Source: Casimicrobiaceae bacterium (GTDB lineage Bacteria > Pseudomonadota > Gammaproteobacteria > Burkholderiales > Casimicrobiaceae). Taken from it: a stretch of 64,000 bases of DNA. Every line of letters begins with the position of its first letter. Position 1 is the stretch's first letter. The notes beneath the pieces are model-generated. The model was not told the origin of the DNA, did no database searches, and saw only the letters and a list, made by a program, of their open reading frames with translations. Below, one piece after another: positions 14,435 through 50,959 of the stretch. Where the stretch lies: the NCBI GenBank assembly GCA_035536295.1, contig DATLOI010000127.1, positions 26,493-90,492 of the forward strand, read 5' to 3'. A program made the position numbers and the translations under genes.

Positions 14435-15286
14435 TCAAAATCGTAGCGCGGCGACACCCACCGCCACGCCGATTGCGCCGGCAATGCGTCTCCATCCGAA
14501 GCTTTCCTTCAGAAACAAAGCACCCATCAACGCCGCAAACACGACCGACACTTCGCGCAGTGCAGCGACGACCGCAACCGGCGCGCGCGTCATTGCCCAC
14601 AACGCAATGGCATAGGCGCCAAAGCTGGCAGCGCCTGCAAGGAATGCGCGGCGCCTGCGCAGCCAGAAATAGTCGACCGCGGGGCGACCGCGTTGCCAAA
14701 CAATCCATGTCAGATACGGCACGCCGTCGAGGCACGTCAACCACACCGCGTACGACCATGCGCTGCCGGCGATACGCGCACCGGCGCCATCGATCAGCGT
14801 GTAGATCGCGATGATCGCGGCGTTTGCGAGCGCGTACAGCGCAGCCGCGACGGTGTGACGTCCGCTCGCGAACCACGCAATGGTCAGGATGCCGGCCGAA
14901 ATGAGAATGATGCCGCCCAGCATCGGCGCGCTGAGGCGTTCGTGCAGGAACACGACTCCGAGCAGCGTCACGATCAGTGGCGCCACGCCTCGCATCAACG
15001 GATAGGCGAACGAAAGGTCGCCGCGGCGATACGCCGCGCCAAGCAGAAGGTAGTAGACGAAGTGAACGGCCATCGATGCAAACACGAACGGCCACGCTTC
15101 GCGTGATGGCGGGGAAACGAACAGCAACAGCGGAACGCACAAAAACGTCGTGCCGGCGACAACCAGCGCTGTATCGAGCACCGGATCGCCGGCGGCCGAT
15201 TTCAAAAGCGCGTTCCAGAGCGCATGCAGAAAGCCCGCGCCCAGAACGGCAAGCGTCACCGCAAGCGAGATGTCGGGCGCCGGCAA
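14435..15286 (-). CDS. EamA/DMT-family transporter
   Basis: 283 aa, about 10 hydrophobic segments, EamA-like N-terminus (LAVLGAGFLHALWNALLK). 13 nt upstream of the DMGDH-like gene. Confidence 0.75.
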   Translation of the reverse strand: MPAPDISLAVTLAVLGAGFLHALWNALLKSAAGDPVLDTALVVAGTTFLCVPLLLFVSPPSREAWPFVFASMAVHFVYYLLLGAAYRRGDLSFAYPLMRGVAPLIVTLLGVVFLHERLSAPMLGGIILISAGILTIAWFASGRHTVAAALYALANAAIIAIYTLIDGAGARIAGSAWSYAVWLTCLDGVPYLTWIVWQRGRPAVDYFWLRRRRAFLAGAASFGAYAIALWAMTRAPVAVVAALREVSVVFAALMGALFLKESFGWRRIAGAIGVAVGVAALRF

Positions 15287-15468: not shown

Positions 15469-17187
15469 TCAAACGCCGCGCGGCGCGCTGTTCAATTCGT
15501 CGCTCTTCGGCTCGTCGCCGTCGGCGAGCGCTGCCACGGTCTCGGCAGTCGGCGTCATCAAGCGTGTTCGCGCGAGCACACCTGCATCCTCGAGAATCGG
15601 ATAAGCGACCGAGCAGAAGTGCGAATTGATGCGACGCATGTCGGAGATGAGATCGAGATGCAGCGACGAGGTCTCGATGCTTTCGATCGTGTTACCGGCA
15701 AGGCGGGCGAGATGCGAGTTGGCGTAGGCGCGCTCCAAATCGCGAACGATGACTTTCTGCGCGAGCAATTCCTGCGCGCTCTTCTGATCGCCGTGCAGGA
15801 AAACGCTCGTGGCTAGGCGCAGGTTGCAAACCAGGCGACCATGCAGATCCGTGATTTCGAGCATTCCCGCGTCCGAAAAGCTGTGGCCCTTGTCGATCTT
15901 GCGATCCTCGATGTCGGCGAGAATGCGCTCGATGATGTCGCCGACCTGCTCGAGATTGATCGTGAACGATACGATGTCGGTCCAGCGGCGGCTTTCGCGC
16001 TCGTCGAGCGCGCCGCGGGGAACCTGCGTCAAATAGAGCTTGACCGCCGTGTAGAGCTCGTCCACGACGTCGTCCTTTTTGCGCAGCCGCTCGGCCTTGT
16101 CGCGATCGTTGGTTTGCAGCACGACCAGCATCCCGCGCAACATTTCGTCGATGACATCGGCGATGCGCAAGGTCTCGCGCGCGGCATTGCCGATCGCCAG
16201 AGCGGGCGTTTCGAGCGCCGAAGGATCGAGATGACGCGGCTTCTCGGCGCCTTCGGAAGGAGGCGGCGAGGGCATCAGTCGCTCGGTGAACTTTGCGATG
16301 CGCTCGGTCAGCCCGACGAACACGATCGCGAGCACCGTGTTGAACGCCAAGTGAAACAACACGACTTCATGCGCGGCTGAAACGTTCACGCGATCGATGA
16401 CTGTGCTCGCATAGCTCACGAGCGGCATTGCAAGCACGACGCCGATCAACTTGAATAGAAAGTTGCCGAGCGTGACGCGCCGCGCCTCGATCTCGGAATG
16501 CAGCGTCGACAGCACGGCGAGAAGACCGCTGCCGAGATTCGCGCCCAGCACGATGCCGAGCGCGACTTCGGGGCCGACGAGCGAGAGTGATGCGAACGTC
16601 GCGACGAGCAGCACCACCGCAAGGCTCGAGTACACGACAACGGTGATCAAAGCACCTGCGAGCACGTCGAGCATCACGTCGCCCGTGAGCGATGCGAACA
16701 GCACCTTGACACCCGCGGTGTCGACAACGGGATGCGCGGCGGTGCGAATCCACTGCAATGCGAACAGGATGAGTCCGAGGCCGATCAGGATGCGACCCAG
16801 CCGGCCCGACGTCGATGCCTGCTTGCGCAGGAACAACGTGACGCCGACGACGATCAGAATCGGCGCCAGGAAGTCGAGATCGAACGACAGCACCAGCGTG
16901 ACGATCGACGTGCCGACGTCGGCGCCGAGCATCACCGCAAGTGCAGGGGCTGTCGCGATCAATCCCTGTCCCGCGAATGCGGCAACGATCAAAGCGGTCG
17001 CGGTGCTGCTTTGCAGCAGAGCGGTCACCGAAAGTCCTGCACCGAAGGCACGCCAGCGACTGCTCGTGCTGTGACGCAGCAGACGTCGCAAAACGCTTCC
17101 GTATTGGCGCAGGATGCCGGTGCGGACGAAGTGCGTTCCCCATACGAGCAACGCAACACCAGCCAAAAGATCGAGCAGTATTTTCAC
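15469..17187 (-). CDS. Na/Pi-cotransporter family protein with C-terminal PhoU-like domain (YjbB type)
   Basis: GTG at 17187 (GTGA overlap with the upstream stop) gives VKILLDLLAGVALLVWGTHFVRTGILRQYG, the typical N-terminus of this family. Duplicated NaPi_cotrn repeats followed by a soluble helical domain. Confidence 0.85.
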   Translation of the reverse strand: MKILLDLLAGVALLVWGTHFVRTGILRQYGSVLRRLLRHSTSSRWRAFGAGLSVTALLQSSTATALIVAAFAGQGLIATAPALAVMLGADVGTSIVTLVLSFDLDFLAPILIVVGVTLFLRKQASTSGRLGRILIGLGLILFALQWIRTAAHPVVDTAGVKVLFASLTGDVMLDVLAGALITVVVYSSLAVVLLVATFASLSLVGPEVALGIVLGANLGSGLLAVLSTLHSEIEARRVTLGNFLFKLIGVVLAMPLVSYASTVIDRVNVSAAHEVVLFHLAFNTVLAIVFVGLTERIAKFTERLMPSPPPSEGAEKPRHLDPSALETPALAIGNAARETLRIADVIDEMLRGMLVVLQTNDRDKAERLRKKDDVVDELYTAVKLYLTQVPRGALDERESRRWTDIVSFTINLEQVGDIIERILADIEDRKIDKGHSFSDAGMLEITDLHGRLVCNLRLATSVFLHGDQKSAQELLAQKVIVRDLERAYANSHLARLAGNTIESIETSSLHLDLISDMRRINSHFCSVAYPILEDAGVLARTRLMTPTAETVAALADGDEPKSDELNSAPRGV

Positions 17188-18551
17188 GCGCTTGCAGCGG
17201 TCAGTGCCGCATCGAGAATGTCCAGCGCGCGATCGAGATCGTCTTGCGCGATGACGAGTGGTGGTGAAAGCACCAGCACGTTGCCCTGGCCGATCTTGAA
17301 CGAAAGCCCGTTGGCGAGGCATTCGTACATCACCTGCTCGGCCTGGTCGCGCGCCGGCGTGCCGTCGCGATGGCGGAGCTCGATGCCCAACAGCAGCCCG
17401 ATCCCGCGCACGTCGGCAACGAGCGCGTGCCGCGAACGCATGTCCAGTAGACGACACTGCGCGTACTCGCCCAGATGCTGCGATCGCTCGCAAAGCCGCT
17501 CGTCGGCGATGACGTCCAGCGTCGCCAGTGCCGCTGCACAGCCAACCGAGCTCTTCTCGTGTGTGTAGTGCCCCAACGCCATCGTGCGCGCCACGTCGAG
17601 CTCGCGACGTGCGATCAACGCCGCCATCGGCATCACCGCACCGCCCAGCCCCTTGCCGAGCACGACGATGTCGGGCGCGACGTCGTAGTGCTGGAATGCA
17701 AACATTGTGCCGGTGCGTCCAAGCGCGATCGGAACCTCGTCGAGGATCAGCAAAGTACCGTGGCGATCGCAGGCGTCGCGCAACTTTTGGTAATACGCAG
17801 CTGGCGGAACCTGAACATCGGTCGAGCGAATCGTCTCGATGATGACCGCGGCGACATCTTCCTCCTTGTCGAGCATGTACGCGATGTACTCGGCGCAGCG
17901 CGCGTTGCACGTTCCATTGCAGCCGAAGCGGCAATCGCGCGGATCACAGGGCGGCGCGTGCTCGGCGCCGGCCAATAACGGACCGATGCCGCGCCGGAAC
18001 ATCGCTTCACCGCCAATCGATATCGCATCCAGCGACGCACCGTGAAAGCTATCCCACAACGAGATCGTCTTGTGACGACCAGTCACGGCGCGCGCGAGCT
18101 TCAGCGCCATTCCGATCGCAAGCGCGCCGCTTGGCGCGAACAGCACTTTGCCCAACGGATCCGGCGCGAGCGCAACCAGACGCTCGGCAAGCTCGACAGC
18201 ATGTGAATTGGTGAAACGGCGCGGTGAGAATGGAAGCGTGTCGAGCGCGTCTTTGACCGCCGCGATCACGCGCGGATGTCGATAGCCGACCTGGTGCACG
18301 CTGTTGCCGTGAAAGTCCATGATGCGACGACCGTCACGGTCGGTGAGCCAGATGCCTTCGCTCTCGACTAATGAATCGAAGCATGGCGTGGACAGCGATT
18401 GATGCAAGAACACCGCGCTGTCGCGCTCGAGCCACGCCCGCGTCGCCTCACCGACGTGCGTCGCCTCGTAACGTTGACGGCGCGGGGAAAGATTGACGTC
18501 GCCTTCGAAGGCGAGCTCGCCGATCGACAACGGTGGAGGAGGCGCGTTCAT
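17184..18551 (-). CDS. Class-III (fold type I) PLP enzyme, aminotransferase-like. Candidate (R)-1-hydroxy-2-aminoethylphosphonate ammonia-lyase (PbfA-like) or aminophosphonate transaminase
   Basis: 455 aa. LILDEVPIALGRTGTMFAFQHYDVAPDIVVLGKGLGG region with the PLP-lysine context typical of class-III aminotransferases. Sits inside the phnA-phnY operon. The specific function is contextual inference only. Confidence 0.8.
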   Translation of the reverse strand: MNAPPPPLSIGELAFEGDVNLSPRRQRYEATHVGEATRAWLERDSAVFLHQSLSTPCFDSLVESEGIWLTDRDGRRIMDFHGNSVHQVGYRHPRVIAAVKDALDTLPFSPRRFTNSHAVELAERLVALAPDPLGKVLFAPSGALAIGMALKLARAVTGRHKTISLWDSFHGASLDAISIGGEAMFRRGIGPLLAGAEHAPPCDPRDCRFGCNGTCNARCAEYIAYMLDKEEDVAAVIIETIRSTDVQVPPAAYYQKLRDACDRHGTLLILDEVPIALGRTGTMFAFQHYDVAPDIVVLGKGLGGAVMPMAALIARRELDVARTMALGHYTHEKSSVGCAAALATLDVIADERLCERSQHLGEYAQCRLLDMRSRHALVADVRGIGLLLGIELRHRDGTPARDQAEQVMYECLANGLSFKIGQGNVLVLSPPLVIAQDDLDRALDILDAALTAASA

Positions 18552-18552
18552 C

Positions 18553-22006
<3,454 letters not shown>

Positions 22007-22032
22007 GTTGCCATTTAACGCGTTACGGGTGT

Positions 22033-22048
22033 AGATTGTCAACAATCT
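22033..22048. promoter_or_regulatory. Candidate GntR-type operator in the divergent phn promoter region
   Basis: AGATTGT-CA-ACAATCT: perfect 7-bp inverted arms with a TTGT..ACAA core (GntR GT-N-AC pattern). Lies 27 bp upstream of the regulator start. Confidence 0.4.
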
Positions 22049-22246
22049 GCAATCCTGCTTCACTCCGCCAGACCTGAAAAACAGAAGGGCTTCGCGGCCG
22101 ATGTGATTTACTACCGCGCTTTTTCGCGCGCCACCCGCGGTTGCTCGCGCGAAGCGCTGCGCGTAGCATCGGTTGCGCACAATGCCTAAGAGATCGTCCG
22201 CTGTTCGCATGCTTCGATTCTTGCAGCCACCAAGGAGGAGTCTTTC

Positions 22247-23275
22247 ATGAACCTTGCACGTCGTATTTCACTGGTGGCAATCACTGCCGCCGCGTTGTTC
22301 CATGTTGCGCCGCTCGCCGCGCAAAAAACCCAGCTCATCGTCTATACAGCGGTCGAAACCGATCAGCTCAAGGCGTACGAGGAAGGCTTCTACAAAGCAG
22401 TCCCCGATGTCGAGCTCAAATGGGTCCGCGATTCAACCGGTGTCATCACCGCAAAGCTGATCGCCGAGAAAGCCAATCCGCAGGCCGATGTCATATGGGG
22501 TCTTGCCGCAACGAGTCTTCTGGTCCTCGACAACGAAGGCATGTTGCAGCCCTACGCGCCCGCGGGACTCGCTGCGCTGGGGCCGCAATACAAGGACACG
22601 AAGAACCCGCCGAATTGGTGGGGAATGGACGTGTGGGGCGCGACGGTTTGCTTCAACACCGTCGAGGCGGCCAAGCAGAATCTGCCCAAGCCCGAGACCT
22701 GGCAGGACTTAACCAAGCCGGTCTACAAAGGCAAGATCGTGATGCCGAACCCGGCGTCGTCGGGAACCGGCTTTCTCGATGTGACGGCATGGCTGCAAAT
22801 CATGGGCGAGCAGAACGGCTGGCAGTTCATGGATCGATTGCACGACAACATCGCGCAATACACGCATTCGGGCAGCAAGCCGTGCGTGCAAGCAGGCAAC
22901 GGCGAGTTTCCGATCGGCATCTCGTTCGAGTATCGCGCCAACACGATCAAGGCCAAGGGCGGTCCGATCGATCTGATCTTTCCCAAGGAAGGACTCGGCT
23001 GGGACATGGAAGCATTCGGCATCATGAAGAATACGAAGAAGCTCGATGCCGCGAAGAAGCTCGCCGACTGGGCGTCGAGCAGGCCCGCGATGGAGCTCTA
23101 CGCGAAGAATTACGCGATCGTCGCGTTACCGGGGGTTGCGCAACCGCTGCCGAACGTTCCCGCCGACTACGAGAAGCGCCTGGTCAAGAATGACTTCGCC
23201 TGGGCCGCGAAGAATCGCGATCGCATTCTTGCCGAGTGGTCGAAGCGCTACGACGCCAAATCGGAGAAGAAGTAG
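22247..23275 (+). CDS. ABC transporter periplasmic binding protein, Fe(III)/2-aminoethylphosphonate type (PhnS2-like)
   Basis: AAGGAGGAG Shine-Dalgarno, signal peptide, FbpA/PhnS-like fold sequence. Divergent from the phnA/phnY operon. AEP specificity is inferred from context. Confidence 0.8.
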   Translation: MNLARRISLVAITAAALFHVAPLAAQKTQLIVYTAVETDQLKAYEEGFYKAVPDVELKWVRDSTGVITAKLIAEKANPQADVIWGLAATSLLVLDNEGMLQPYAPAGLAALGPQYKDTKNPPNWWGMDVWGATVCFNTVEAAKQNLPKPETWQDLTKPVYKGKIVMPNPASSGTGFLDVTAWLQIMGEQNGWQFMDRLHDNIAQYTHSGSKPCVQAGNGEFPIGISFEYRANTIKAKGGPIDLIFPKEGLGWDMEAFGIMKNTKKLDAAKKLADWASSRPAMELYAKNYAIVALPGVAQPLPNVPADYEKRLVKNDFAWAAKNRDRILAEWSKRYDAKSEKK

Positions 23276-23370
23276 GCGTAAGCGCGATTTTCGGTAGCAG
23301 CCATGCACGCGAGCGAGGGATTGCTCGATGAGCGATCTCTCGCAGCGGTGTGCATGCAACAGGAGGCCCC

Positions 23371-24444
23371 GTGAGCGTTGAACCGAGCTACCTCGAGCTG
23401 CGGGGCATTCACAAGAGCTTCGGCAAGTTCGTCGCCCTCGAGGACATTTCGCTCGACGTCCGGCGGGGCGAGCTCATGGTGTTTCTCGGACCGTCGGGTT
23501 GCGGCAAGACCACGCTGCTGCGCATCGTTGCGGGGCTGGAGCAACAAGATCGCGGTGCCATCATCCAAGACGGCACGGACATCACGCGTTTGCCCGCGAT
23601 CCGACGCGACTACGGGATCGTTTTTCAATCGTATGCGCTGTTTCCGAACCTCACTGTTGCGGACAACGTTGCGTATGGGCTTGTCAATCGGCGGCAGAAA
23701 CGGGCGGCGATCAATGCGCGCGTCGATGAGCTGTTGACGTTGGTTGGCCTGCCCGAATCGAAAACGAAGTATCCGGGCCAGCTTTCCGGCGGGCAACAGC
23801 AGCGTATCGCGGTTGCGCGTGCGCTTGCATCCTCACCCGGATTGCTGTTGCTCGACGAGCCGCTGTCTGCGCTCGATGCGCTGGAGCGCGTGCGCTTGCG
23901 TGGTGAGCTTCGCGCGCTGCAACAGCGACTCGCGGTGACCACGATCATGGTCACGCACGATCAGGAGGAAGCGCTTTCGATTGCAGATCGGATCGTCGTG
24001 ATGCATTCGGGACGAGTCGAGCAGGTGGGAACACCGCGCGCAATTTATGGAACGCCGGCGACCTCGTTCGTCGCCGACTTCGTCGGCAAGATCAACGTAT
24101 TGCCTGCCGTTGCCGAAGGGCGCGGCAGCTTTCGTGTCGGCAGCGTGGCGCTTCAGACCGAATGCGTCGACATTGTTGCAGGGACGCCGGTCAAGCTGTA
24201 TCTGCGACCCGAAGAAATCGCCGTGAACGCGAACGGCGCGTCGAGCATCAACACGCTGACAGCGAAGGTCGGCAAGATCGAATTCCTCGGAGCGTCGTGC
24301 ATGGTTGCGATCGCGCTCGATGCGGGCGACGCGCCACCATTGGTCGCAAACGTGTCGCGTCAGATTGTCGATGCAAAGCAGCTAGCAACCGGGCAATCGC
24401 TCACCGTGAGCCTGCCGCCGCAGGCGTTGCGCGTTCTCGGGTAG
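23371..24444 (+). CDS. ABC transporter ATP-binding protein (PhnT2-like, with C-terminal TOBE-type domain)
   Basis: GTG 23371 is preceded by AGGAGG (23361-23366). Walker A GPSGCGKTT, signature LSGGQQQR, Walker B LLLLDEP. Confidence 0.9.
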   Translation: MSVEPSYLELRGIHKSFGKFVALEDISLDVRRGELMVFLGPSGCGKTTLLRIVAGLEQQDRGAIIQDGTDITRLPAIRRDYGIVFQSYALFPNLTVADNVAYGLVNRRQKRAAINARVDELLTLVGLPESKTKYPGQLSGGQQQRIAVARALASSPGLLLLDEPLSALDALERVRLRGELRALQQRLAVTTIMVTHDQEEALSIADRIVVMHSGRVEQVGTPRAIYGTPATSFVADFVGKINVLPAVAEGRGSFRVGSVALQTECVDIVAGTPVKLYLRPEEIAVNANGASSINTLTAKVGKIEFLGASCMVAIALDAGDAPPLVANVSRQIVDAKQLATGQSLTVSLPPQALRVLG

Positions 24445-24450
24445 TCGCGG

Positions 24451-26175
24451 TTGATGGCTACCCGCGCGGCGACGTTACCTCGCATTCCCGCGCCCGCCGT
24501 CAAGCCGCGCGTGCACTGGCACGATCGGCTTGCGCAAGGATTGCTTCTATTGTGCTGCCTCGGGCTCGTCGCATTTCTGCTCGCACCGCTCGCGACGATT
24601 CTGATCAAGAGCGTGCAGGACAATTCGGGCGCGTTCGTCGGGCTCGCGCAGTTCCGCGACTATTTCGCGACCCCCGCACTGCGAAGCTCGATCTGGAACA
24701 CGTTGTGGGTTGCATTGGCCGTGACCGCGATCACGGTTCCGCTGGCATTCATGTACGCATACGCGCTGACGCGTTCGTGCATGCCCGGCAAGATCTTCTT
24801 TCGGGTGATCGCACTGACGCCGATCCTCGCGCCATCGTTGATGGCGGCAATCTCGTTCATCCAATGGTTCGGCAACCAGGGAGCGCTGAAGTGGCTATTG
24901 GGCGGCGCGTCGGTGTATGGCCCGCTCGGCATCATCCTGAGCTCCGTTTACGCAACGTTTCCCCACGCACTGATGATCATTCTCACGGCGCTGTTGCTGG
25001 CGGACGGCCGGCTCTACGAGGCGGCGGAGTCGCTGCGCACGCCGCGTTGGCGCAAGTTCCTGACGATCACGTTGCCAGGCGCGCAATACGGTCTGGTCAG
25101 CGCGACGATGGTCGTGTTCTCGTACACGGTGAGCGATTTCGGGATTCCGAAAGTGATCGGCGGCAACTTCAACGTGCTCGCCGTCGATATTTTCAAGCAG
25201 GTGATCGGCCAGCAGAACTTCAACAAGGGTGCGGTCGTCGGATTGGTGCTACTCGTGCCCGTGCTGCTCGCGTTCATTATCGATTGGATCATGCAGGGGC
25301 GCATAGTGGCGCAGTTCTCTGCCCGCGCGGTTCCCTACGCGCCGCGGCCATCGCGCTGGTTCGATCGCGCAATGCTCGTCTTTTGCGTCATCGTCGCGCT
25401 ACTGTTGATCGCGGTGTTGGGAATGGCGATCTACACGTCGTTCATCAAGTTCTGGCCGTACGACAAGTCGATGAGCCTGCGCCACTATTCGTTCGGCCTG
25501 GTCGACGCCGGCGTCATCGTCTCGTTTTTCAATAGCCTCAAGATGGCAGTGATGAGCGCGGTGTTCGGGACGATGTTCATCTTCGGCGTTGCGTATCTGC
25601 TCGAGAAAACGCGAGGCATGCCGACGACCAAGGCGGCGGTGCGACTCCTGGCCGCAGTTCCGATGGCAGTGCCTGGAATGGTGCTGGGCCTCGGCTACAT
25701 TCTGTTTTTCAACGACCCGGCCAATCCGCTGAACGCCCTTTACGGCACGATGACGATCCTCGTCGTGTCGACGGTCGTTCACTACTACACGTCGAGCCAC
25801 CTGACCGCTGTGACGGCGTTGAAAGCGCTCGACAACGAGTTCGAGGCGGTTTCCGCGTCGCTCAAGGTTCCGTTCTACAAGACGTTCTTCCGCGTCACCG
25901 TGCCGGTGTCGCTGCCGGCGATCCTCGACATAGGACGCTATTTGTTCGTCAACGCGATGGTCACGATTTCGGCCGTTGTTTTCCTCTACGCTCCGGGAAC
26001 GCAGCTCGCTTCGATCGCGATTCTCAACATGGACGAAGCGGGCGAGATCGGACCAGCGGCGGCGATGGCGACCTTGATCGTTGCGACATCGACGGTGATC
26101 TGCCTGGTCTATGCGGTGATCACACGCTTCATCGTGACGAGGACGCAGCGCTGGCGCGCGGCGGCGGTGATGTAG
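24451..26175 (+). CDS. Fused two-domain ABC transporter permease (PhnU2/FbpB-like)
   Basis: 574 aa, about 12 TM segments, two BPD-transporter permease repeats. Start is TTG 24451 or ATG 24454. Confidence 0.9.
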   Translation: MMATRAATLPRIPAPAVKPRVHWHDRLAQGLLLLCCLGLVAFLLAPLATILIKSVQDNSGAFVGLAQFRDYFATPALRSSIWNTLWVALAVTAITVPLAFMYAYALTRSCMPGKIFFRVIALTPILAPSLMAAISFIQWFGNQGALKWLLGGASVYGPLGIILSSVYATFPHALMIILTALLLADGRLYEAAESLRTPRWRKFLTITLPGAQYGLVSATMVVFSYTVSDFGIPKVIGGNFNVLAVDIFKQVIGQQNFNKGAVVGLVLLVPVLLAFIIDWIMQGRIVAQFSARAVPYAPRPSRWFDRAMLVFCVIVALLLIAVLGMAIYTSFIKFWPYDKSMSLRHYSFGLVDAGVIVSFFNSLKMAVMSAVFGTMFIFGVAYLLEKTRGMPTTKAAVRLLAAVPMAVPGMVLGLGYILFFNDPANPLNALYGTMTILVVSTVVHYYTSSHLTAVTALKALDNEFEAVSASLKVPFYKTFFRVTVPVSLPAILDIGRYLFVNAMVTISAVVFLYAPGTQLASIAILNMDEAGEIGPAAAMATLIVATSTVICLVYAVITRFIVTRTQRWRAAAVM

Positions 26176-28504: not shown

Positions 28505-28518
28505 CAGGAGATCACCGA

Positions 28519-30797: not shown

Positions 30798-30821
30798 GAT
30801 CGCCGACGTGACCGAGCTCCG

Positions 30822-31796
30822 TCAGTCTGCTTTGATGTTGTTGGCCTTCACGACCTTTTCCCAGCGCTGCATTTCGCCGGCGATGAACTTCTGCGTTGCC
30901 TCGGGGCTGGCTGCGACGATGTCCATGCCGAGCGTCTCGGTCAACGTCTTGCGCACATCGGGAAGTTGAAGCGCTTTTTGCACTTCCTGTTGCATGCGGT
31001 CGAGAATCGGCGCCGGCGTGCCAGCCGGTGCGAGCATTCCCCACCACGCTAGCGCGGCGGGGCTCGGCACGCTCTGCTCGGCGAGCGTGGGTACGCTGGG
31101 CATCGCATGCGAGCGCTTGTCACCCGTCACGGCGAGCGCGCGGAGCTTTCCCGAATTGACGTGAGGCGCAAGCGCCGCGACGGAGGCGATCGCGAGGTCG
31201 ACCTGTCCGCCCATCGCGTCGGTCGTCAGCGGCCCGCCGCCTTTGTAGGGAACGTGAATGAGCTTCGCGCCGCTCGCCTGTGCAATCAATATGGACGCAA
31301 GATGTCCGAGCGAGCCGTTGCCAATCGAGCCGATCGTCACGCCATCGCTCTTTTTCGCTGCCGCGACGACGTCGGCGAAATTCTTGTAGGGTTTGCTTGC
31401 CGCGGTCGCGATCGCCATCGGCGCGGTGCCGATCAACATCACCGGGGCGAGATCCTTCAACGTATCGAACGGCATGCTCGCGATGAGCGACGGATTGACG
31501 GCATGCGTGTCGAACACGAACACCCAGGTGTAACCATCGGGCGGTGATTTGGCGGCGATGGAGGTGCCGATCGAACCGGAAGCGCCGACGCGATTGTCGA
31601 CGATGATCTGCTGCTTCAGCGACTCGCCGACCTTGGCAGCAATGAGACGCGCCAGCGGGTCGACCGAGCCACCCGGCGGGAATGGCACGACGAAGCGGAT
31701 GGGCTTTGCCGGCCAGTCCTGCGCCGACACCGGGCCGCTGAGAAATACCAAGGCGAGCAGCGCGAATTGCAAGACTCGTGAAATCACGGGGTGCAT
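30822..31796 (-). CDS. Bug-family (TctC-like) substrate-binding protein
   Basis: Signal peptide plus WPAKPIRFVVPFPPGGSVDPLAR...DNRVGASGS. Last gene of the DMGDH-like/Rieske operon. Confidence 0.9.
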   Translation of the reverse strand: MHPVISRVLQFALLALVFLSGPVSAQDWPAKPIRFVVPFPPGGSVDPLARLIAAKVGESLKQQIIVDNRVGASGSIGTSIAAKSPPDGYTWVFVFDTHAVNPSLIASMPFDTLKDLAPVMLIGTAPMAIATAASKPYKNFADVVAAAKKSDGVTIGSIGNGSLGHLASILIAQASGAKLIHVPYKGGGPLTTDAMGGQVDLAIASVAALAPHVNSGKLRALAVTGDKRSHAMPSVPTLAEQSVPSPAALAWWGMLAPAGTPAPILDRMQQEVQKALQLPDVRKTLTETLGMDIVAASPEATQKFIAGEMQRWEKVVKANNIKAD

Positions 31797-31841
31797 GTGC
31801 GGTGATCCTTCGTGCGTTGGTGATGCTGCTTTAGGGCCTGT

Positions 31842-33122
31842 TCAAGCGACGCGTGTCAGCGGCGCATTCACAGCGCCCGCGCCACCCGGGCCCATTTCGC
31901 GCAAATACCAGCGAATGAACGCGTCGACGTTGTATTCCTTGCCCTTCGACAATGGACCGGGAACGTAACCGATCGAGTCCACGCCCTTCTGCTGCCATTT
32001 GCAGATATCCCAGTCCTGCGCGTTGGTGAGATCCCAGAACGGCAACAGTTTGTCCAGCGAATAGTCGTCGCCTTCGCGCGCTTGGTCATCGACGAGCCAA
32101 TAGCTTCGCAGCTTGGTCTTGCGCGGGCCCGCAGGCAGCAGGCGTGAGGCGACGGCGTGATCGCAGCTTCCGTGCACCCAGAAGTTCGGCAAGCTGCGCA
32201 GTCGCAGCGTCCCGACATCGGCATCCTGGTAGTCGCCCATCAGCGGCGCGACACGCGCACCATCGATCGACTCCGTATCCCAGTCATCGACCAGAACCGT
32301 GCGATCTGCCGCGTACCAGACGCCGCGCTCGGGATCAGGGAAGGGCGCGAGACCGCCGCGCTGGTGGGTGATGGCAATGCCCTGCGCCGCCCACTTCGAT
32401 TGCGTGCGCTCGATCGCCGTGGCCATTTTTGCGCGCGACGATTCGGTGGCGGACGCTTCGTCGTAAACGTCGAAGTTCGCTTTGACGTATTGCGGATGGT
32501 TGCGAACGCAATGGAAGCATTCGCGGTTATTTTCCCATACGAGCTTCCAGTTCGCTTCGACGTCGTGGTCGATGATCTTGGCGATTTTCGCGCGATCGAA
32601 GCCTTGCGGACGCGCAGCGCCTTCGAATGCTTCACGCAGCGGAGCGAATGCGGGTGGCGAGTCGGCGAGCGAAACATAGATGAGTCCTGCGACGGTTTCG
32701 ACCCGCACCGGAAGTAACCCGAGCTTCGACTTGTCGACGTCTTCATGCATGCCGTGGCAGGAGACGAGCTCGCCTTGGCGCGAGTACGTCCAGCTGTGAT
32801 ACGGACAAATGATCGCGCGAACGTGCCCGGTTTCCGAACGGCACAGCATCGTGCCGCGATGCCGGCACACATTGTAAAACGCGCGAACGCGACCGGCATC
32901 ATCGCGCATGACCAATACCGACGTTGCCTCCACGGCGAGTGTAAGAAAGTCGCCTGCATTGGGAATCTCGATTTCGAAGCCGGCGAAAAGCCACCCGCCG
33001 TACCAGACACGCTCGAGCTCGCGCGCATACAACGCATCGGTGTGATAGAACGCGCGCGGCATTCCGTAGCCGTCGCGGCGCGTGGCGAGGAGCGTGTCCA
33101 GCTCATCGTTTTGCGTGAACAT
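31842..33122 (-). CDS. Rieske [2Fe-2S] non-haem iron oxygenase alpha subunit (GbcA/CntA/stachydrine-demethylase-like)
   Basis: Rieske motif CRH-x17-CPYH (CRHRGTMLCRSETGHVRAIICPYHSWTY). Mononuclear iron motif E-x2-H-x4-H (NNRECFHCVRNHP). No reductase partner in the window. Confidence 0.9.
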   Translation of the reverse strand: MFTQNDELDTLLATRRDGYGMPRAFYHTDALYARELERVWYGGWLFAGFEIEIPNAGDFLTLAVEATSVLVMRDDAGRVRAFYNVCRHRGTMLCRSETGHVRAIICPYHSWTYSRQGELVSCHGMHEDVDKSKLGLLPVRVETVAGLIYVSLADSPPAFAPLREAFEGAARPQGFDRAKIAKIIDHDVEANWKLVWENNRECFHCVRNHPQYVKANFDVYDEASATESSRAKMATAIERTQSKWAAQGIAITHQRGGLAPFPDPERGVWYAADRTVLVDDWDTESIDGARVAPLMGDYQDADVGTLRLRSLPNFWVHGSCDHAVASRLLPAGPRKTKLRSYWLVDDQAREGDDYSLDKLLPFWDLTNAQDWDICKWQQKGVDSIGYVPGPLSKGKEYNVDAFIRWYLREMGPGGAGAVNAPLTRVA

Positions 33123-33147
33123 GGAAGGAATCCTCGCAGGAGCAAGC

Positions 33148-35565
33148 TCAAGCAGCGAGAAGCCGCTTGCGCTCGGGATCGTACAGCGGACGCGTGTGTC
33201 GCACGGCGGGGAAGCGCTCGCCCATCACTTCGACTGCGTAGTCGGCGCGTGCGGGCTCATCCGCCTCGACGTAAGCGCAAAAGATAGTGCGGCCCACCGT
33301 GTAACCGTAGCCCGCGCTCGTGACGCGACCGATCACGCGCCCGCCTGCAAGCACGATTTCGCCGCCGAACATATCGATATCCGCTGATGCAGTGAACCAC
33401 AGGAGCTTGCGTTTGGGTCCCGTCGCTTTGATTTCGACGAGCGAGCGTTGCGCAAGAAAATCACCCTTGTCGGCCGCGACGCAGAACCCCAGGCCCGCTT
33501 CGTAGGGATTGTAGTCGGGCGTGATGTCCGAGCCCCACGCGAGATATTGCTTTTCGAGCCGCAGGCTGTTGATCGCGCGGTAACCCGCATTGACGATGCC
33601 GAATCGCTCGCCGGCTTGCATCAGGCTTTCGTACAAGCCGAGCGCGTATTCGACGGGCACATGAAGCTCGTATCCCAGCTCGCCGACATAGGAAACCCGC
33701 AGGGCGAGCACGGGCGCATAAGCCAGGTCGATCTCGCGCGCGCTCATGTAGGGAAAGCTCGCGTTGTCGAGTGGCGCATCGGTCAATTGTGCCAGCACTT
33801 CGCGTGAGCGCGGTCCGCAAACGTTCAACACCGCGCGCGACGACGTGTGGTCGACGATTCCCACACTTCCATCGTCGGGCAGATGGCGTTCAATCGTCGA
33901 GCGGTCGCGTACGCCGAGTGCGCTGCCCGTAACGAAATAGAACCGATCGGGCGCAAGCCTCGTCACGGTCACGTCGGCTTCGATGCCGCCACGCACGTTG
34001 CAAAGTTGCGTGTACACGATTGTGCCCACCGGTCGATCGACATTGTTGACCGCGAGCATTTGCAAGAGCGCCAGGGCACCCGGACCTCGCACCTCGTACT
34101 TCGAGAACGAGCTCATGTCGATCAGCGCGACACGCTCGCGAATCGCGCGATGCTCGTCACCGATCGCTGCGAACGCGGGACCGCGAGTGAACGCAGGCGA
34201 TTCGACGGCACTCGTGCCCGCTGGCGCGAACCAGTTCGGACGTTCCCAGCCAAACTTCGTGCCGAACACCGCCCCTGCTTGCTGTAGCGTCGTATGCAGC
34301 GGGCTGCGCCGTGTATCACGCCCGACAGCGGGCTCGTAGTTCGGCCACGCGATGTGGTAGTAACGGCCATAACTCTCGACCGCGCGCTCATACATGAAGC
34401 GCTTGACCGCGTGCACTGCGCCGAAGCGCCGCACATCGAACGGCCACAAGTCCAGTCCAGGATCGCCATCGACGATCCAGTTCGCCATGACCCAGCCCGC
34501 GCCTCCCGACGCTGCGATGCCCGACGTGAATCCGCAGCACAGATAGAAATTGTCGAGCTCCGGCGAGGGTCCAATGATGGGTTCGCCGTCCGCGGTGATC
34601 GGAATCGGTCCGTTGATCATCTGGCGAATGCCGACTTCGTTCAACACCGGAATGCGTGCGGACGCCGCTTCGGCGAGCGGTGCAAATCGATCGAACTCGG
34701 GCGCCAATAACTCGGGACCGAAGTCGGCACGTATCCCTGATGCGCCCCAAGGAATCGTGTTCGCTTCCCAGCCGCCAACCGCGAGCGCGCCCGGCTCGGG
34801 CTTGACATAGAAGCTGCCGTCCGGATCGCGCAGCGTGGGCAAGTTGTCTGGAATGCGCGATGACTTTTCGGTCACGAAATATTGATGCTCGACTGCGCAA
34901 GCCGCGATGCGCGTGCCGACCATCGCAGCAATGTCGCGCCCCCACATGCCGGCTGCATTGATCACGCATTCGACGTCGATCGATCCTTGATCGGTGGTCA
35001 CGCGCGTCACGCGACGACCACGCTTTTCAAGCGCCGTGACAAGAACATTCTGGATGATGCGAACCCCGCCCGCCCGCGCGCCGGCGACGTACGCGTGCGT
35101 CAGACTCGCCGGGTCGACGTAACCATCGCCTTCGACCCATGCGGCGCCAACGACACCATCGATGTCGATCAGCGGAAAGCGCTCCTGGGCCTCACGCGCC
35201 GAAATGAGGTCGACGTGAAAGCCGAATCCCTTGGCCATCGTCGCCGATCGCTTGAATTCCTGCCAGCGCGAACGCGATGACGCGATACGCAAGCTTCCGG
35301 CACGATGCCATCCGGTGGCCTGTCCCGTTTCTGCTTCGAGCTTGTCGTAGAGCTCGGCGGAGTAGCGCATGAGGCGCGTCAAATTGCTGCTGCTGCGCAA
35401 CTGCCCGACAAGACCCGCTGCGTGCCAGGTCGCGCCATGCGTCAATTGCAGCCGCTCGAGCAGCACGACGTCGCGTGCGCCGCGCTTGGCGAGGTGATAG
35501 GCGATGCTCGAGCCAATGCAGCCGCCGCCGATGATCACGATGCGGGCTTGGGTGGGGACGGACAT
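33148..35565 (-). CDS. FAD-dependent oxidoreductase with GcvT-type folate-binding domain (dimethylglycine/sarcosine dehydrogenase family), paralogue 2
   Basis: ATG 35565 gives MSVPTQARIVIIGGGCIGSSIAYHL. TWHAAGLVG motif. Collinear with, and clearly paralogous to, 12001..14421 over the full length. Confidence 0.85.
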   Translation of the reverse strand: MSVPTQARIVIIGGGCIGSSIAYHLAKRGARDVVLLERLQLTHGATWHAAGLVGQLRSSSNLTRLMRYSAELYDKLEAETGQATGWHRAGSLRIASSRSRWQEFKRSATMAKGFGFHVDLISAREAQERFPLIDIDGVVGAAWVEGDGYVDPASLTHAYVAGARAGGVRIIQNVLVTALEKRGRRVTRVTTDQGSIDVECVINAAGMWGRDIAAMVGTRIAACAVEHQYFVTEKSSRIPDNLPTLRDPDGSFYVKPEPGALAVGGWEANTIPWGASGIRADFGPELLAPEFDRFAPLAEAASARIPVLNEVGIRQMINGPIPITADGEPIIGPSPELDNFYLCCGFTSGIAASGGAGWVMANWIVDGDPGLDLWPFDVRRFGAVHAVKRFMYERAVESYGRYYHIAWPNYEPAVGRDTRRSPLHTTLQQAGAVFGTKFGWERPNWFAPAGTSAVESPAFTRGPAFAAIGDEHRAIRERVALIDMSSFSKYEVRGPGALALLQMLAVNNVDRPVGTIVYTQLCNVRGGIEADVTVTRLAPDRFYFVTGSALGVRDRSTIERHLPDDGSVGIVDHTSSRAVLNVCGPRSREVLAQLTDAPLDNASFPYMSAREIDLAYAPVLALRVSYVGELGYELHVPVEYALGLYESLMQAGERFGIVNAGYRAINSLRLEKQYLAWGSDITPDYNPYEAGLGFCVAADKGDFLAQRSLVEIKATGPKRKLLWFTASADIDMFGGEIVLAGGRVIGRVTSAGYGYTVGRTIFCAYVEADEPARADYAVEVMGERFPAVRHTRPLYDPERKRLLAA

Positions 35566-35693
35566 CGGTCGCCAAAGCAAAGATGACGGGCGAATCTATC
35601 ACGGCATCGCGCGATGGCGAATCGCGTTAAGATGAATGCCACAGCGGCGCGCGAAAACACCGCCACGAGCCCGACTTTCAAACGAGGTAGCAC

Positions 35694-36842
35694 ATGAGTC
35701 TCGTCTCCCGCGATCCGATCCTGTTGACGCCCGGTCCCTTGACAACCTCGCTCGCGACCAAGAGCGCGATGCTCCGTGACTGGGGCTCGTGGGACGCGAG
35801 CTTCAACGCCGTGACCGCGCAGATTCGCGGCAAGGTCCTCGACATCGTTAATGCGCAAAACAGCCATGTCTGCGTTCCGATGCAGGGAAGCGGCACGTTC
35901 TCGGTGGAAGCAGCGGTCAACACGCTAGTGCCGCGCGACGGTCACGTGCTAGTCCTGATCAACGGCGCGTACGGGCAGCGCATGGCGAAGTTGACGGCGA
36001 TGATGGGACGGCGTGTCAGCACGTTCGTCACTGCGGAAGACGTGCCGACTACAGCCGCCGACGTCGACCGGCTGCTCGCCGCCGACGCGTCGATCACGCA
36101 CGTGGGACTGATTCACTGCGAGACGTCCACCGGAATCGCGAATCCGCTTGTGCCGATCGCCGAGGTGGTTGCGCGACATCGCCGTCGCTTGATCATCGAT
36201 GCAATGAGCTCGTTCGGCGCCATGCCGATCGATTCGCGCAATGTCGCTTTCGATGCCGTCGTGGCGGCGTCAGGCAAATGCATCGAAGGGCCGCCAGGTA
36301 TGGGGTTCGTCATTGCCAAACGCGACGCGCTCGAAGGCGCGGCCGGCAACTGCAGCTCGCTCGCGCTCGATCTGCACGATCAATGGATCTACATGGAGAA
36401 GACGACGCAATGGCGCTATACGCCGCCGACGCATGTCGTCGTCGCTTTCAATGCCGCGCTCGATCAGTTCATGGCCGAAGGTGGACAACCGGCGCGGCTT
36501 GCCCGCTACACGAAGAATTGCGAGACGCTGCTCGCGGGAATGCGTGCGATGGGTTTTCGCTCGTTTCTCGATGCCTCGATCCAGGCGCCGATCATCGTGA
36601 CCTTCCACGCGCCGGCCGACTCGCGCTACGACTTCAAGACGTTCTACGCGAACGTGCGCGATCGCGGCTTCATCTTGTATCCGGGAAAACTCACGCAACT
36701 CGAGACATTTCGCGTGGGTTGCATCGGTGCGATCGGTGCGGAAGAAATGCGCCAGGCGGTGCACGCGATCGGCGATGCGCTGCGTGATATGGGGATTCGC
36801 GAAATTGCGCCGGCGGCCCCGGCGGCAATCCGCGCGGCGTGA
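35694..36842 (+). CDS. phnW: 2-aminoethylphosphonate:pyruvate aminotransferase
   Basis: Full-length resemblance to characterised PhnW as I recall it ([31 protein letters not shown] lysine context [25 protein letters not shown]). Confidence 0.9.
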
Positions 36843-36843
36843 A

Positions 36844-37719
36844 CTAATCGATCGATGCTCGGCGCAATACGTCGAGCTCGTCGAATGCGCGCGAGTCGCG
36901 CGGCACATGCCCGTGGCGCATCAACCAGTCGGCTACGACGAGTGCCGCGTCGGCGGTCATGAGATCGGGTGCGTGCGCGTTTCCCGCGAGTTCCGCTGCT
37001 TCCTCGATCGACACGCAACGAAATTGCGAGACTTCGCCGTCATGGTTGATCGGCACGAAGTCGTCGGGAAGCACCAGATCGAAGACGTGAATAGTCTCGC
37101 GTTGTAATCCATCGCTTTGCATACGCGCGATTTCGACACGGGTCGCGCGCCGGGCGCTTTGCGCGAGCGATTCGTCGATCCCCGCTTCTTCCCGCGCTTC
37201 CTTGACGATGGTTTGCTGGATGTCGAGCGTTGCGCCAACGCCGCCGCCCACCAGATTGTCCAGCTGGCCGGGATCGATCGACTTGCCAGCGCTGCGTCGT
37301 GCAATCCACATACGGGTCTCGTTGTGCGCGGCGCCGTTGAGATGCGCGGCTTCGGTTGCGATGCCAAAAAAGCGCGCGGCTGCTCGCTCGACGAACAATA
37401 GCGGTGCGTCGTTGGCTCGTGCGCGCACAGCGAAGTGCTCATCGCGCCAGCGCGTGAGCTCGCCCCGTCGCGACAATTCGCGAGCGATGCGATCGAGAGC
37501 CGCCGTCCGCGACGCAACGTCGATCAACGATGGGACCATGAATACACCATGCTCGTTGACGACGAACATGTCGGAAAACGTAGCGAGCATATTGGCACGA
37601 CGATCATCGAGATATCCGACGACCAGACCATCGACGATCCACGGCCGCAGCGTGATCGAAGGTGGGGCGAGCGCCTCACCGAGTCGCGCGGCAAGTCGGT
37701 TTAAAATGGCGCACCGCAT
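36844..37719 (-). CDS. NUDIX hydrolase with N-terminal DUF4743-like domain
   Basis: Nudix box GGGVGATLDIQQTIVKEAREEAGI. Start taken at ATG 37719 because the longer ORF would overlap the divergent HAD gene. Start uncertain. Confidence 0.7.
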   Translation of the reverse strand: MRCAILNRLAARLGEALAPPSITLRPWIVDGLVVGYLDDRRANMLATFSDMFVVNEHGVFMVPSLIDVASRTAALDRIARELSRRGELTRWRDEHFAVRARANDAPLLFVERAAARFFGIATEAAHLNGAAHNETRMWIARRSAGKSIDPGQLDNLVGGGVGATLDIQQTIVKEAREEAGIDESLAQSARRATRVEIARMQSDGLQRETIHVFDLVLPDDFVPINHDGEVSQFRCVSIEEAAELAGNAHAPDLMTADAALVVADWLMRHGHVPRDSRAFDELDVLRRASID

Positions 37720-38491: not shown

Positions 38492-39349
38492 ATGGCGGCG
38501 CGACTTCTCGACGGCAAGGCGCTCGCGGCGAGCATCACCGCGGATGTCGCACAGCGTGTCGCGCGTCGCGTGGCGACAGGTGGCAGCGTTCCCGGGCTGG
38601 CGGTTGTCCTGGTCGGCGACAACCAAGCATCGCAACTTTACGTCCGCAACAAGCGGCACACGACCGAAGCTGCGGGAATGCGCTCGTTCGCGTATGACTT
38701 GCCGTCGAGTGCGTCGCAAGCCGACGTGCTGGCGTTGATTGACGTGCTCAACAGTGATTCCGAAGTCTCGGGGATTCTGGTCCAGCTTCCGTTGCCGTCG
38801 TCGATCGACGCTGGCGCGATCGTCGAGCGTATCGATGTGCGCAAGGACGTCGACGGCTTCCATCCTTACAACATCGGCCGACTGGTGCAGAAGACCCCGA
38901 CGCTGCGACCTTGCACGCCTTACGGTTGCATGGAATTGTTGCGTTCGACCGGCGAGGATCTCGTCGGCGAGCATGCAGTCGTCATCGGACAATCGAACAT
39001 CGTCGGGCGCCCGATGGCGCTCGAATTGTTGATGGCGCGCTGCACGGTGACGATCTGCCATTCGGCGACGCGCGATCTTCCGCAAATCGTACGCACGGCC
39101 GATATCGTCGTCGCGGCGGTCGGCAAGGCGCGTTTTGTCAAAGGCGATTGGATCAAGCCGGGAGCGATTGTCATCGACGTCGGCATCAATCGCGACGAAG
39201 CCGGCAAGCTCGCCGGTGACGTTGAATTGGCGGCGACAATCGAACGCGCGGGATGGATCACGCCAGTGCCGGGCGGCGTGGGGCCGATGACGATTGCGAT
39301 GCTCCTGTCGAACACGTTGCTGGCGGCGGAGTGGCAGGATCGCGACTAG
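38492..39349 (+). CDS. folD: Bifunctional 5,10-methylene-tetrahydrofolate dehydrogenase/cyclohydrolase
   Basis: LLDGKALAA..., [48 protein letters not shown]. Confidence 0.95.
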
Positions 39350-48963: not shown

Positions 48964-48985
48964 CGTGGAGTTGGTCCGCCTGCCG

Positions 48986-49774: not shown

Positions 49775-49776
49775 GC

Positions 49777-50949: not shown

Positions 50950-50959
50950 AAGGCTCGTT

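Follow-up and report, generated by a model that had tools for sequence, protein, structure and literature searches.

Why should a Rieske oxygenase and a flavoenzyme resembling dimethylglycine dehydrogenase (DMGDH) be encoded back to back with phnW, the gene for 2-aminoethylphosphonate (AEP)--pyruvate transaminase? The question is raised by a 64,000-nucleotide stretch of contig DATLOI010000127.1 (the whole stretch analysed here, hereafter the window) from a metagenome-assembled genome (MAG) of a Casimicrobiaceae bacterium, in which a first-pass annotation had linked these genes to the N-demethylation of aminophosphonates. Judging from sequence and gene context, we think on balance that the window encodes an accessory N-demethylation module, which would convert tri-, di- and mono-methyl-AEP to AEP and so feed PhnW, PhnY and PhnA; possibly, the module also handles the 1-hydroxy forms of N-methylated AEP.

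N-methylated aminoethylphosphonates are common natural phosphonates in the lipids and glycans of invertebrates, and occur as intermediates of microbial natural products. N-methyl-AEP is not a substrate for PhnW (PMC10590968). The enzymes PbfB, PbfC and PbfD act on mono-methyl-AEP and weakly on the di-methyl form, yielding phosphonoacetaldehyde and methylamine with neither AEP nor formaldehyde as product, and are inactive on trimethyl-AEP (PMC10590968). In Leisingera caerulea, a dioxygenase, TmpA, and a second oxygenase, TmpB, split trimethyl-AEP at the C-P bond to give glycine betaine and phosphate (PMC10574752), and this is the only trimethyl-AEP route described (PMC10590968, PMC10574752). 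The literature thus agrees with the first-pass annotation that the known routes for methylated AEP are TmpA/TmpB and the Pbf oxidases and that none is DMGDH-type; furthermore, our full-text searches found no Rieske or GcvT-fused enzyme described in phosphonate catabolism.

Predicted demethylases of the window

The genes in question are the following, with DMG1 and DMG2 as our names for the two DMGDH-like paralogues (SARDH, sarcosine dehydrogenase).

33148..35565, minus strand: DMG1, predicted DMGDH-type FAD/folate demethylase, 805 aa (Pfam)
31842..33122, minus strand: group-Vb Rieske non-haem-iron monooxygenase, GbcA/Stc2-like, 426 aa (Pfam Rieske and Ring_hydroxyl_A)
30822..31796, minus strand: TctC/Bug-family binding protein, 324 aa (Pfam TctC, 229 bits)
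35566..35693, no strand: divergent spacer between DMG1 and phnW, 128 bp (sequence)
35694..36842, plus strand: phnW, 2-aminoethylphosphonate--pyruvate transaminase (NF010006, 572 bits, cut-off 296; TIGR02326, 508 bits)
12001..14421, minus strand: DMG2, DMGDH/SARDH-type paralogue, 806 aa (Pfam four-domain architecture)

The DMG1, Rieske and TctC genes lie on the minus strand with gaps of 25 and 45 nt by the open reading frame (ORF) calls, and DMG1 diverges from phnW over 128 bp, all exactly as the first-pass annotation had placed them. Its assignment of the three products to FAD plus GcvT-fold, Rieske and TctC families, with their motifs, agrees with Pfam and with the translations, and the second DMGDH-like paralogue that it had reported at 12001-14421 is indeed there with all four domains. 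The DMG1 ORF spans 33148-35580 (minus strand) with an ATG start at 35565, and NCBI has an identical 805-aa protein (P0001) from a Casimicrobiaceae MAG.

DMG1 and DMG2 share 43% identity, and each contains DAO, FAO_M, GCV_T and GCV_T_C domains above the Pfam gathering score, with GCV_T at 266 and 247 bits, respectively. DMG1 scores 559 bits against rat/human DMGDH and 390 bits against Arthrobacter dimethylglycine oxidase (DMGO); the corresponding scores for DMG2 are 450 and 330 bits. The motif TWHAAG (residue 47 in DMG1, 68 in the DMG2 ORF) aligns with that of DMGDH, and His91 of the human enzyme, within (S/T)WHAAG, carries the 8-alpha-N3-histidyl FAD (PMC5082570). DMG1 also keeps the histidine of EHQY, an aligned tyrosine, the Asp of GGIEADVTV, and GELGYE; DMG2 keeps EHFY and GGIESDLTV, and has VGGPGFE where DMGDH and DMGO read GELGWE. 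In DMGO the catalytic pair is His225/Tyr259 and the folate-site residue Asp552. Thus, as read from the alignments, the residues predicted to serve methyl oxidation and folate transfer are intact in DMG1 and DMG2. With DMGDH, DMGO and SARDH (PDB 4PAB, 5L46, 1PJ5) the two proteins have in common the four domains, the TWHAAG histidine, the His/Tyr pair and the folate-domain Asp, and their chemistry is likely to be that of DMGDH, namely oxidation of an N-methyl group with transfer of the one-carbon (C1) unit to tetrahydrofolate (THF) (PMC5082570). They are nevertheless distant from the solved enzymes (390-559 bits for DMG1, 330-450 bits for DMG2) and, unlike DMGDH, fall into two orthologous groups with members in Alpha- as well as Betaproteobacteria, linked to phn genes and to transporters of the PhnS2 type; their predicted substrate is a phosphonate, as against the carboxylate of the DMGDH type. 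We also considered the Arg that follows the flavinylated His (GQLR) as a marker of DMG1 and DMG2. It is not diagnostic, because it is common to every bacterial homologue aligned, including one from Paracoccus denitrificans that is linked to sox genes.

In the Rieske protein the motifs CRH-x17-CPYH and E-x2-H-x4-H (ECFHCVRNH) are readable in the translation, as is ENNRECFHCVRNH, and an Asn lies two positions before the bridging Glu (ENNRECFHC), at the position of Tyr203 in CntA. An Asn instead of an aromatic residue at this site is a signature of the N-demethylating, group-Vb Rieske enzymes (PMC7948474). The protein matches Stc2 (3VCA) over its full length (264 bits), whereas its alignment with CntA is confined to the N-terminal Rieske half, so that of the proposed likeness to GbcA and CntA the GbcA/Stc2 side (group Vb) holds and the CntA side does not. 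With GbcA, BmoA and Stc2 it shares the Rieske Cys/His ligands, the mononuclear-iron His-His motif and the group-Vb Asn. Because its score against NF058607, the NCBIfam equivalog for GbcA, is 353.7 bits where the cut-off is 670, we regard it as a relative of GbcA and Stc2 and not as GbcA itself. It further differs from GbcA in having no GbcB-type reductase adjoining it in the window, in always being paired with DMG1, and in usually lying near a PhnS2-type transporter.

DMG2 is a fixed member of a phn operon type

DMG2 lies outside the coordinates flagged by the first-pass annotation, and of the two paralogues it proved to be the one most tightly tied to phn genes. In the window it belongs to a complete Burkholderiales-type phosphonate locus, 10-20 kb from the flagged genes, with the following components.

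14435..15286, minus strand: EamA/DMT-family membrane protein, phn_DUF6-like (Pfam EamA in an orthologue)
15469..17187, minus strand: Na/Pi cotransporter (NaPi) with PhoU domains (domain scans; GTG start at 17187)
17184..18551, minus strand: pbfA, ammonia-lyase of R-hydroxy-AEP (R-HAEP) (NF049939, 672 bits, cut-off 525)
18553..19956, minus strand: phnY, phosphonoacetaldehyde dehydrogenase (TIGR03250, 851 bits, cut-off 636)
20010..21242, minus strand: phnA, phosphonoacetate hydrolase (TIGR02335, 607 bits, cut-off 408)
21239..22006, minus strand: phnR, GntR/FCD regulator, phnR_burk (TIGR03338, 291 bits, cut-off 271.5)
22030..22051, no strand: 22-bp palindrome TGTAGATTGTCAACAATCTGCA, candidate PhnR operator (between phnR and phnS2)
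22247..26175, plus strand: phnS2-phnT2-phnU2, AepXVW-type ABC transporter (TIGR03261, 530 bits; TIGR03265, 498 bits; TIGR03262, 797 bits)

The minus-strand string phnR-phnA-phnY-pbfA-NaPi-EamA-DMG2 is tightly packed, with a probable ATG start for phnR at 22006, and phnS2T2U2 diverges from it, its three scores all over their cut-offs. The best NCBIfam match of the EamA protein, at 164 bits and under the cut-off of 288, is TIGR03340, whose title is 'phosphonate utilization associated putative membrane protein'. The presence of pbfA implies that hydroxy-AEP is handled at this locus too.

A metagenome scan with DMG2 returned 548 relatives, and gene contexts were taken from the best 80 of these 548 (73-82% identity). 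Wherever there was enough flank, EamA (65/65 loci), PhnY (17/17) and PhnA (15/15) were encoded upstream of DMG2 on the same strand, as was NaPi in 32 of 34 loci, and DMG2 was the last gene of phnR-phnA-phnY-(pbfA)-NaPi-EamA-DMG2. From these counts we conclude that DMG2 is a fixed member of this type of phn operon, and the co-occurrence of orthologues with phn genes across genomes, which the first-pass annotation had proposed to check, is seen in these loci. Most of these operons have DMG2 alone; the DMG1-Rieske pair is an add-on.

The DMG1-Rieske pair in related genomes

Scanning one genome per species, we collected 67 loci (cited below by L numbers), mostly of uncultured Betaproteobacteria/Casimicrobiaceae, whose proteins are 77-83% identical to DMG1. 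A Rieske gene follows DMG1 in all 54 loci with at least 1.5 kb of downstream sequence. Core phn genes lie within 10 kb of the pair in 15 of 62 loci (18 of 62 when EamA and NaPi are counted), and a PhnS2T2U2-family transporter, in one of three sequence flavours, lies near it in 30 of 62. At least four phn-linked gene orders occur: phnW divergent from DMG1-Rieske (the window and L003); DMG1-Rieske convergent with phnW-phnU2T2S2 (L002, L004, L005, L017); phnR divergent from DMG1-Rieske-phnS2T2U2-phnW (L009, L011, L029, L064); and a cassette phnS2'T2'U2'-DMG1-Rieske placed between EamA and DMG2 (L024, L038, L047, L052). In the trees of DMG1 and of the Rieske protein the two phn-linked clades are not sisters. 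The TctC gene, which had been taken for an operon member, follows the Rieske gene only in the window and L003, and its membership of the system is doubtful.

Among the transporters, genes for clade A binding proteins are always divergent from phnR, and those for clade B (54-58% identity to the binding protein of the window) are always directly upstream of DMG1-Rieske. Clade B transporters pass the phnS2 and PhnU2 equivalog cut-offs, and a third PhnS2T2U2-like type scores slightly under them. At the positions that separate the two clades, the clade B binding proteins have lost four acidic and four aromatic residues. The solved structures nearest to the binding proteins carry the annotation of Fe3+ ABC-transporter binding proteins or, in one case, of a pyridoxal-5'-phosphate-binding protein; the Fe3+-annotated entries (AfuA) bind sugar phosphates. 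Genes for a DeoR regulator and for a glycerol-1-phosphate-dehydrogenase-like Fe-ADH accompany the third transporter type in L013, L023, L032, L034 and L040, and the whole set converges on the Rieske gene (e.g. L032 13790-20650). In L068/L001 (~950-13700) a phnS2T2U2-like-DMG1-Rieske cassette has next to it an insertion sequence (HTH_Tnp_1, rve), genes for a HigB toxin and an accompanying HTH protein, and a phage-type integrase gene; this cassette may be mobile.

A palindrome shared by phn genes and DMG1

The 22-bp palindrome between phnR and phnS2 is perfect and occurs once in the window, where no copy would be expected. Its core is found 33 times in ~2 Mb of related loci, as against 0-2 times in shuffled sequence, and 32 of the 33 copies precede phnR, phnS2, phnW, EamA-DMG2 or DMG1. 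It stands 37-93 nt upstream of DMG1 in 7-8 species (L008, L009, L011, L017, L035, L044, L064), in two cases (L008, L017) without an adjacent phnR, and a further copy precedes phnS2 in L009, L011 and L064. In the window, DMG2 is part of the string that begins at the palindrome (22030-22051; TGYAGATTGTYRACAATCTRCA). We infer that the palindrome is a candidate operator to which PhnR, a GntR/FCD regulator, would bind.

The DMG1-phnW spacer contains TGATAGATTCG, an extended -10-like element that resembles TGCTAGATTCG, a sequence conserved upstream of DMG1 in many related loci. A promoter and terminator scan of 30600-37000 gave nothing above shuffled controls. Within 35581-35640 of the spacer stand two copies of the direct repeat GATTCGCC, some 24 nt from each other, one of which overlaps TGATAGATTCG.

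Homologues in Alphaproteobacteria

Alphaproteobacterial contexts were drawn from a plasmid collection, and in all six that were inspected for DMG2 homologues of 53-57% identity the gene adjoins phosphonate-catabolism genes. The order in Sinorhizobium meliloti is DeoR-DMG2like, LysR, NaPi-phnW-phnA-phnY and phnS2T2U2; the S. meliloti transporter beside phnWAY is AepXVW, of which AepX is highly specific for AEP (PMC8316502). In Ensifer the homologue stands beside phnWAY/AepXVW, in Ruegeria sp. AD91A the arrangement is glyA-DeoR-DMG2like-EamA-phnS2T2U2, LysR and phnW-phnA-phnY-aminotransferase, and in Aminobacter sp. MSH1 the gene is next to phnWAY. In Sinorhizobium sp. RAC02 and Shinella zoogloeoides the neighbours are pbfA (over its cut-off), a phn_lysR-like regulator and a PhnU2-like permease, and phnWAY was not seen within 12 kb. 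The full trio of a group-Vb Rieske protein, a DMG1-type protein (53-54%) and a DMG2-type protein (55-56%) is found in Aminobacter, RAC02 and Shinella, where the Rieske and DMG1-type genes adjoin the DeoR-DMG2-type pair; in Aminobacter and RAC02 a PDR/VanB reductase gene adjoins the Rieske gene.

Two loci (L157 20529-22935, L158 6294-8829) contain a D-2-hydroxyacid-dehydrogenase-family gene directly beside pbfA and a phn_lysR-like regulator, between the DMG2-type and the Rieske/DMG1-type genes, and its product may be a PbfF-like HAEP racemase. Homologues below 50% identity occur in contexts other than phosphonate genes, some with nothing telling around them. In L155 (Ruegeria sp. AD91A, 9008-13308) and L156 (Rhizobium rosettiformans, 1469-13275), DMGDH-type genes are accompanied by choline/ethanolamine-kinase-family genes and DeoR, with a betaine/choline-type ABC transporter and a second DMGDH-type gene also present in L156; this cluster hints at the demethylation of phosphorylated methyl-ethanolamines. 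On a P. denitrificans plasmid (L159, 8995-20307) a DMGDH-type gene of 49% identity, distinct from the predicted DMGDH of that organism (Pden_1940), lies with DeoR, GlxA and soxBDA, and also with an inositol-monophosphatase-family gene and a Fe3+/AfuA-type ABC transporter.

Other genes of the window

Between the phn locus and the flagged genes lie a sugar-acid module, a second TctC gene and cls. The plus-strand stretch 26180-29493 begins with a DHDPS-like gene 5 nt past phnU2, followed by an MR_MLE sugar-acid-dehydratase-like gene and the second TctC gene, and occupies the place that phnW has in relatives. A hydroxyproline-betaine pathway was considered for the MR_MLE and DHDPS-like genes (26180-28504), and was dropped because NCBIfam places them with sugar-acid dehydratases and aldolases.

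Downstream of phnW one further gene concerns C1 metabolism:

38492..39349, plus strand: folD (NF008058, 431 bits, over the equivalog cut-off)

FolD may process 5,10-methylene-THF. The gene is where the first-pass annotation had put it, 1.6 kb beyond phnW; as a dedicated link to the route it fares less well, for a Nudix-HAD-folD block is syntenic in L002, L004, L005, L008, L009 and L017, and its nearness to phnW is probably conserved synteny and a weak link. Adjoining folD is a ceramidase-family membrane protein gene (39359-40102, minus strand) with homologues in L046 and L054, for which a tie to ceramide-AEP lipids is speculative. A Puu-like gamma-glutamylation set on the minus strand at 47587-53883 (glutamine-synthetase-like, SBP_bac_5, Fe-ADH, C26 peptidase and aldehyde dehydrogenase genes) is syntenic with the DMG1 region in L002, L004, L005, L008 and L017. 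Finally, 40952-45350 holds purine/urate catabolism genes, including one for a membrane Urate_ox_N protein and an OHCU decarboxylase gene that is apparently fused to an M20 peptidase and is overlapped by a second M20 peptidase gene.

Discussion

In the route that we propose, a transporter of the PhnS2T2U2/AepXVW family would import the zwitterion, and the group-Vb Rieske enzyme, drawing on a reductase encoded elsewhere, would hydroxylate one N-methyl group of trimethyl-AEP to give dimethyl-AEP and formaldehyde. DMG1, with its covalent FAD and folate domain, would then convert dimethyl-AEP to monomethyl-AEP, and DMG2 would convert this to AEP, each passing a C1 unit to THF, after which PhnW, PhnY and PhnA would yield acetate and phosphate from AEP. 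We infer the substrates, the matching of enzyme to methylation state and the attack on the methyl and not the ethyl side; family chemistry (PMC5082570) and the presence of DMG2 alone in most phn operons are our grounds for the step assignments and the regiochemistry. N-methylated 2-aminoethylphosphonates are one substrate class that fits all of the contexts: quaternary and tertiary amines suit the chemistry of group-Vb Rieske, MttB and DMGDH-type enzymes, and, as phosphonate zwitterions, these compounds are in keeping with transporters of PhnS2 type, with the phn palindrome and with membership of the operons. About the fuller version of this proposal, in which three enzymes act as a funnel that strips all three N-methyl groups of 2-(trimethylammonio)ethylphosphonate to AEP, with a C1-conserving entry into PhnW-PhnY-PhnA, we are marginally more doubtful than confident.

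The proposed system resembles the known ones in part. Like DMG1 and DMG2, PbfB, PbfC and PbfD have a PF01266 flavin domain, have been recruited into phnWX or phnWAY clusters and widen the PhnW pathway to N-methylated AEP. However, the Pbf enzymes cleave the C-N bond on the ethyl side and no folate domain has been reported for them, whereas DMG1 and DMG2 have the GcvT folate domain, and the product predicted to remain for PhnW is AEP. TmpA/TmpB has the same proposed quaternary substrate, but our route would strip the methyl groups before a hydrolytic C-P cleavage; neither TmpA-like nor TmpB-like genes were found in the window (no 2-oxoglutarate-dioxygenase or HD-domain family in Pfam scans of the called genes, from which some small ORFs were left out).

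Several observations weigh against phosphonate demethylation. No reductase or electron-transferring flavoprotein (ETF) gene occurs in the window or in any betaproteobacterial locus; Pfam scans of the called genes, in which some small ORFs were not included, gave no ETF or ferredoxin-reductase gene in the 64 kb, and the Aminobacter VanB protein as query had no tblastn match in any betaproteobacterial locus. The phn palindrome is absent from the DMG1-phnW spacer of the window in a search allowing up to 3 mismatches, the TctC gene is not conserved with the DMG1-Rieske pair, and GlxA-family (GbdR-like) regulators lie near the alphaproteobacterial genes. Residue-level comparison of the DMG homologues and binding proteins did not separate substrates, the association is known from a limited number of independent lineages, and in the carboxylate substrates of the family precedents the nitrogen and the anion are one carbon apart, compared with two in AEP. 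In addition, an MttB-family gene lies divergently upstream of DMG1 in 18 species (L010, L014, L026, L027, L031, L033, L037, L041-L043, L046, L049, L053-L055, L057, L061 and L062), together with genes for a BHMT-like protein, a methyl-THF:corrinoid (pterin-binding) methyltransferase, RACo and MTHFR. Its product scores 780 bits against PDB 4YYC and 424 bits against the betaine methyltransferase MtgB, and the characterized precedent, MtgBCDE, demethylates glycine betaine in aerobic bacteria (PMC12478193); on that precedent alone, the MttB-type loci would be read as converting betaine to dimethylglycine and sarcosine. MtgBCDE-like genes flank DMG1-Rieske in these related species and are absent from the window, and whereas the transporter reported with MtgBCDE in R. 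pomeroyi is a BCCT-type betaine transporter (PMC12478193), the related loci have a PhnS2-type ABC transporter, the clade B phnS2T2U2 genes being in the midst of the MttB-type clusters. Here an AEP-type transporter lies within a corrinoid quaternary-amine cluster.

How far do these points favour ordinary glycine betaine catabolism (betaine to dimethylglycine, sarcosine and glycine), merely co-located with phn genes, for example as a shared island for lipid-headgroup or osmolyte scavenging? The Rieske protein would then act as a betaine monooxygenase like GbcA, while DMG1 and DMG2 would oxidize dimethylglycine and sarcosine, respectively, as dehydrogenases, and the DMGDH scores of 559 and 450 bits with conserved catalytic residues, the inclusion of GbcA and Stc2 in group Vb, the MttB/BHMT-like/corrinoid cluster by DMG1 in 18 species with MtgBCDE as betaine demethylase, the GlxA/GbdR-like regulators, the 49%-identity P. 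denitrificans homologue adjoining soxBDA and the palindrome-free promoter region of DMG1 in the window are all in keeping with these roles. Set against them, the GbcA equivalog cut-off is missed by half (353.7 vs 670), the transporters are of PhnS2/AepX type in every case and never of OpuAC/ProX type, and the predicted DMGDH of P. denitrificans is the other gene, Pden_1940. DMG2 is moreover invariant in phn operons, with homologues by phn genes in two proteobacterial classes, the palindrome precedes DMG1 in 7-8 species, and in L024, L038, L047 and L052 the DMG1-Rieske cassette sits between EamA and DMG2. We therefore favour methylated AEP, since the betaine explanation, which we judge to be rather unlikely, has three observations to explain away, namely the kind of transporter, the palindrome and the constant presence of DMG2 in phn operons of two proteobacterial classes. 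The claim of the first-pass annotation that the DMGDH-like and Rieske enzymes serve aminophosphonate N-demethylation is, accordingly, strengthened by gene context in multiple lineages and qualified by the MttB loci and by the spacer.

Three further explanations differ in what they change. Phosphate esters (phosphocholine and phospho-di- or mono-methylethanolamine), or N-methyl-2-aminoethyl phosph(on)ates broadly, could be the true substrates and phosphonates side substrates, as suggested by the choline/ethanolamine-kinase-family genes and DeoR paired with the closest non-phn alphaproteobacterial homologues of DMG1, the IMPase-family phosphatase and Fe3+/AfuA-type ABC transporter beside the P. 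denitrificans homologue, and the pyridoxal-5'-phosphate annotation of one solved relative of the binding proteins; PbfA, too, is of the same broad aminotransferase class as ethanolamine-phosphate phospho-lyase. However, the window and most of the informative loci carry phnW, phnY, phnA and a pbfA over its equivalog cut-off, no kinase gene occurs in the window or the betaproteobacterial loci, and the palindrome ties DMG1 to phn genes, so we consider esters very unlikely. A shade less credible again is that DMG2, and perhaps DMG1, work like the Pbf enzymes, oxidizing the ethyl N-CH2 of methyl-AEP or AEP to give phosphonoacetaldehyde and (di)methylamine, with a vestigial or regulatory folate domain: the PF01266 enzymes PbfB, PbfC and PbfD, which act on N-methyl-AEP, have been recruited to the same clusters, and DMG2 has VGGPGFE in place of GELGWE, but the GCV_T scores are very high (266 and 247 bits), the Asp equivalent to D552 of DMGO is retained, PhnW is kept in the clusters (except that phnWAY was not seen within 12 kb in RAC02 and Shinella), and glyA lies close by in Ruegeria as does folD in the window. 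Least of all do we credit a chance neighbourhood within one lineage without phosphonate function. The betaproteobacterial loci are phylogenetically close, gene contexts track clades, and the genes around a 67%-identical homologue in Paraburkholderia acidicola are unrelated; yet the association recurs in Alpha- and Betaproteobacteria with different gene orders, a cis-element is shared, and the linkage of DMG2 is 100% wherever the flank allows.

The proposed route draws on known kinds of enzyme; what would be new is the predicted class of substrate, together with the pathway and the membership of the regulon. The idea is testable, as homologues occur in cultured, genetically tractable Alphaproteobacteria, and the N-methylated AEP substrates have already been synthesized (PMC10590968). 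If it is correct, the funnel would occur in soil Betaproteobacteria that are abundant and also in tractable Alphaproteobacteria, among which S. meliloti would have the DMG2 step and Aminobacter and Shinella all three enzymes. By extension, a member of the corrinoid methyltransferase superfamily in the MttB-type loci would use a phosphonate quaternary amine as methyl donor. Furthermore, two large and widespread groups now annotated as 'FAD-dependent oxidoreductase / sarcosine dehydrogenase' would acquire a function, phosphonate turnover would be linked to folate C1 metabolism, and the access of PhnWAY organisms to the whole methylation series of AEP would be explained.

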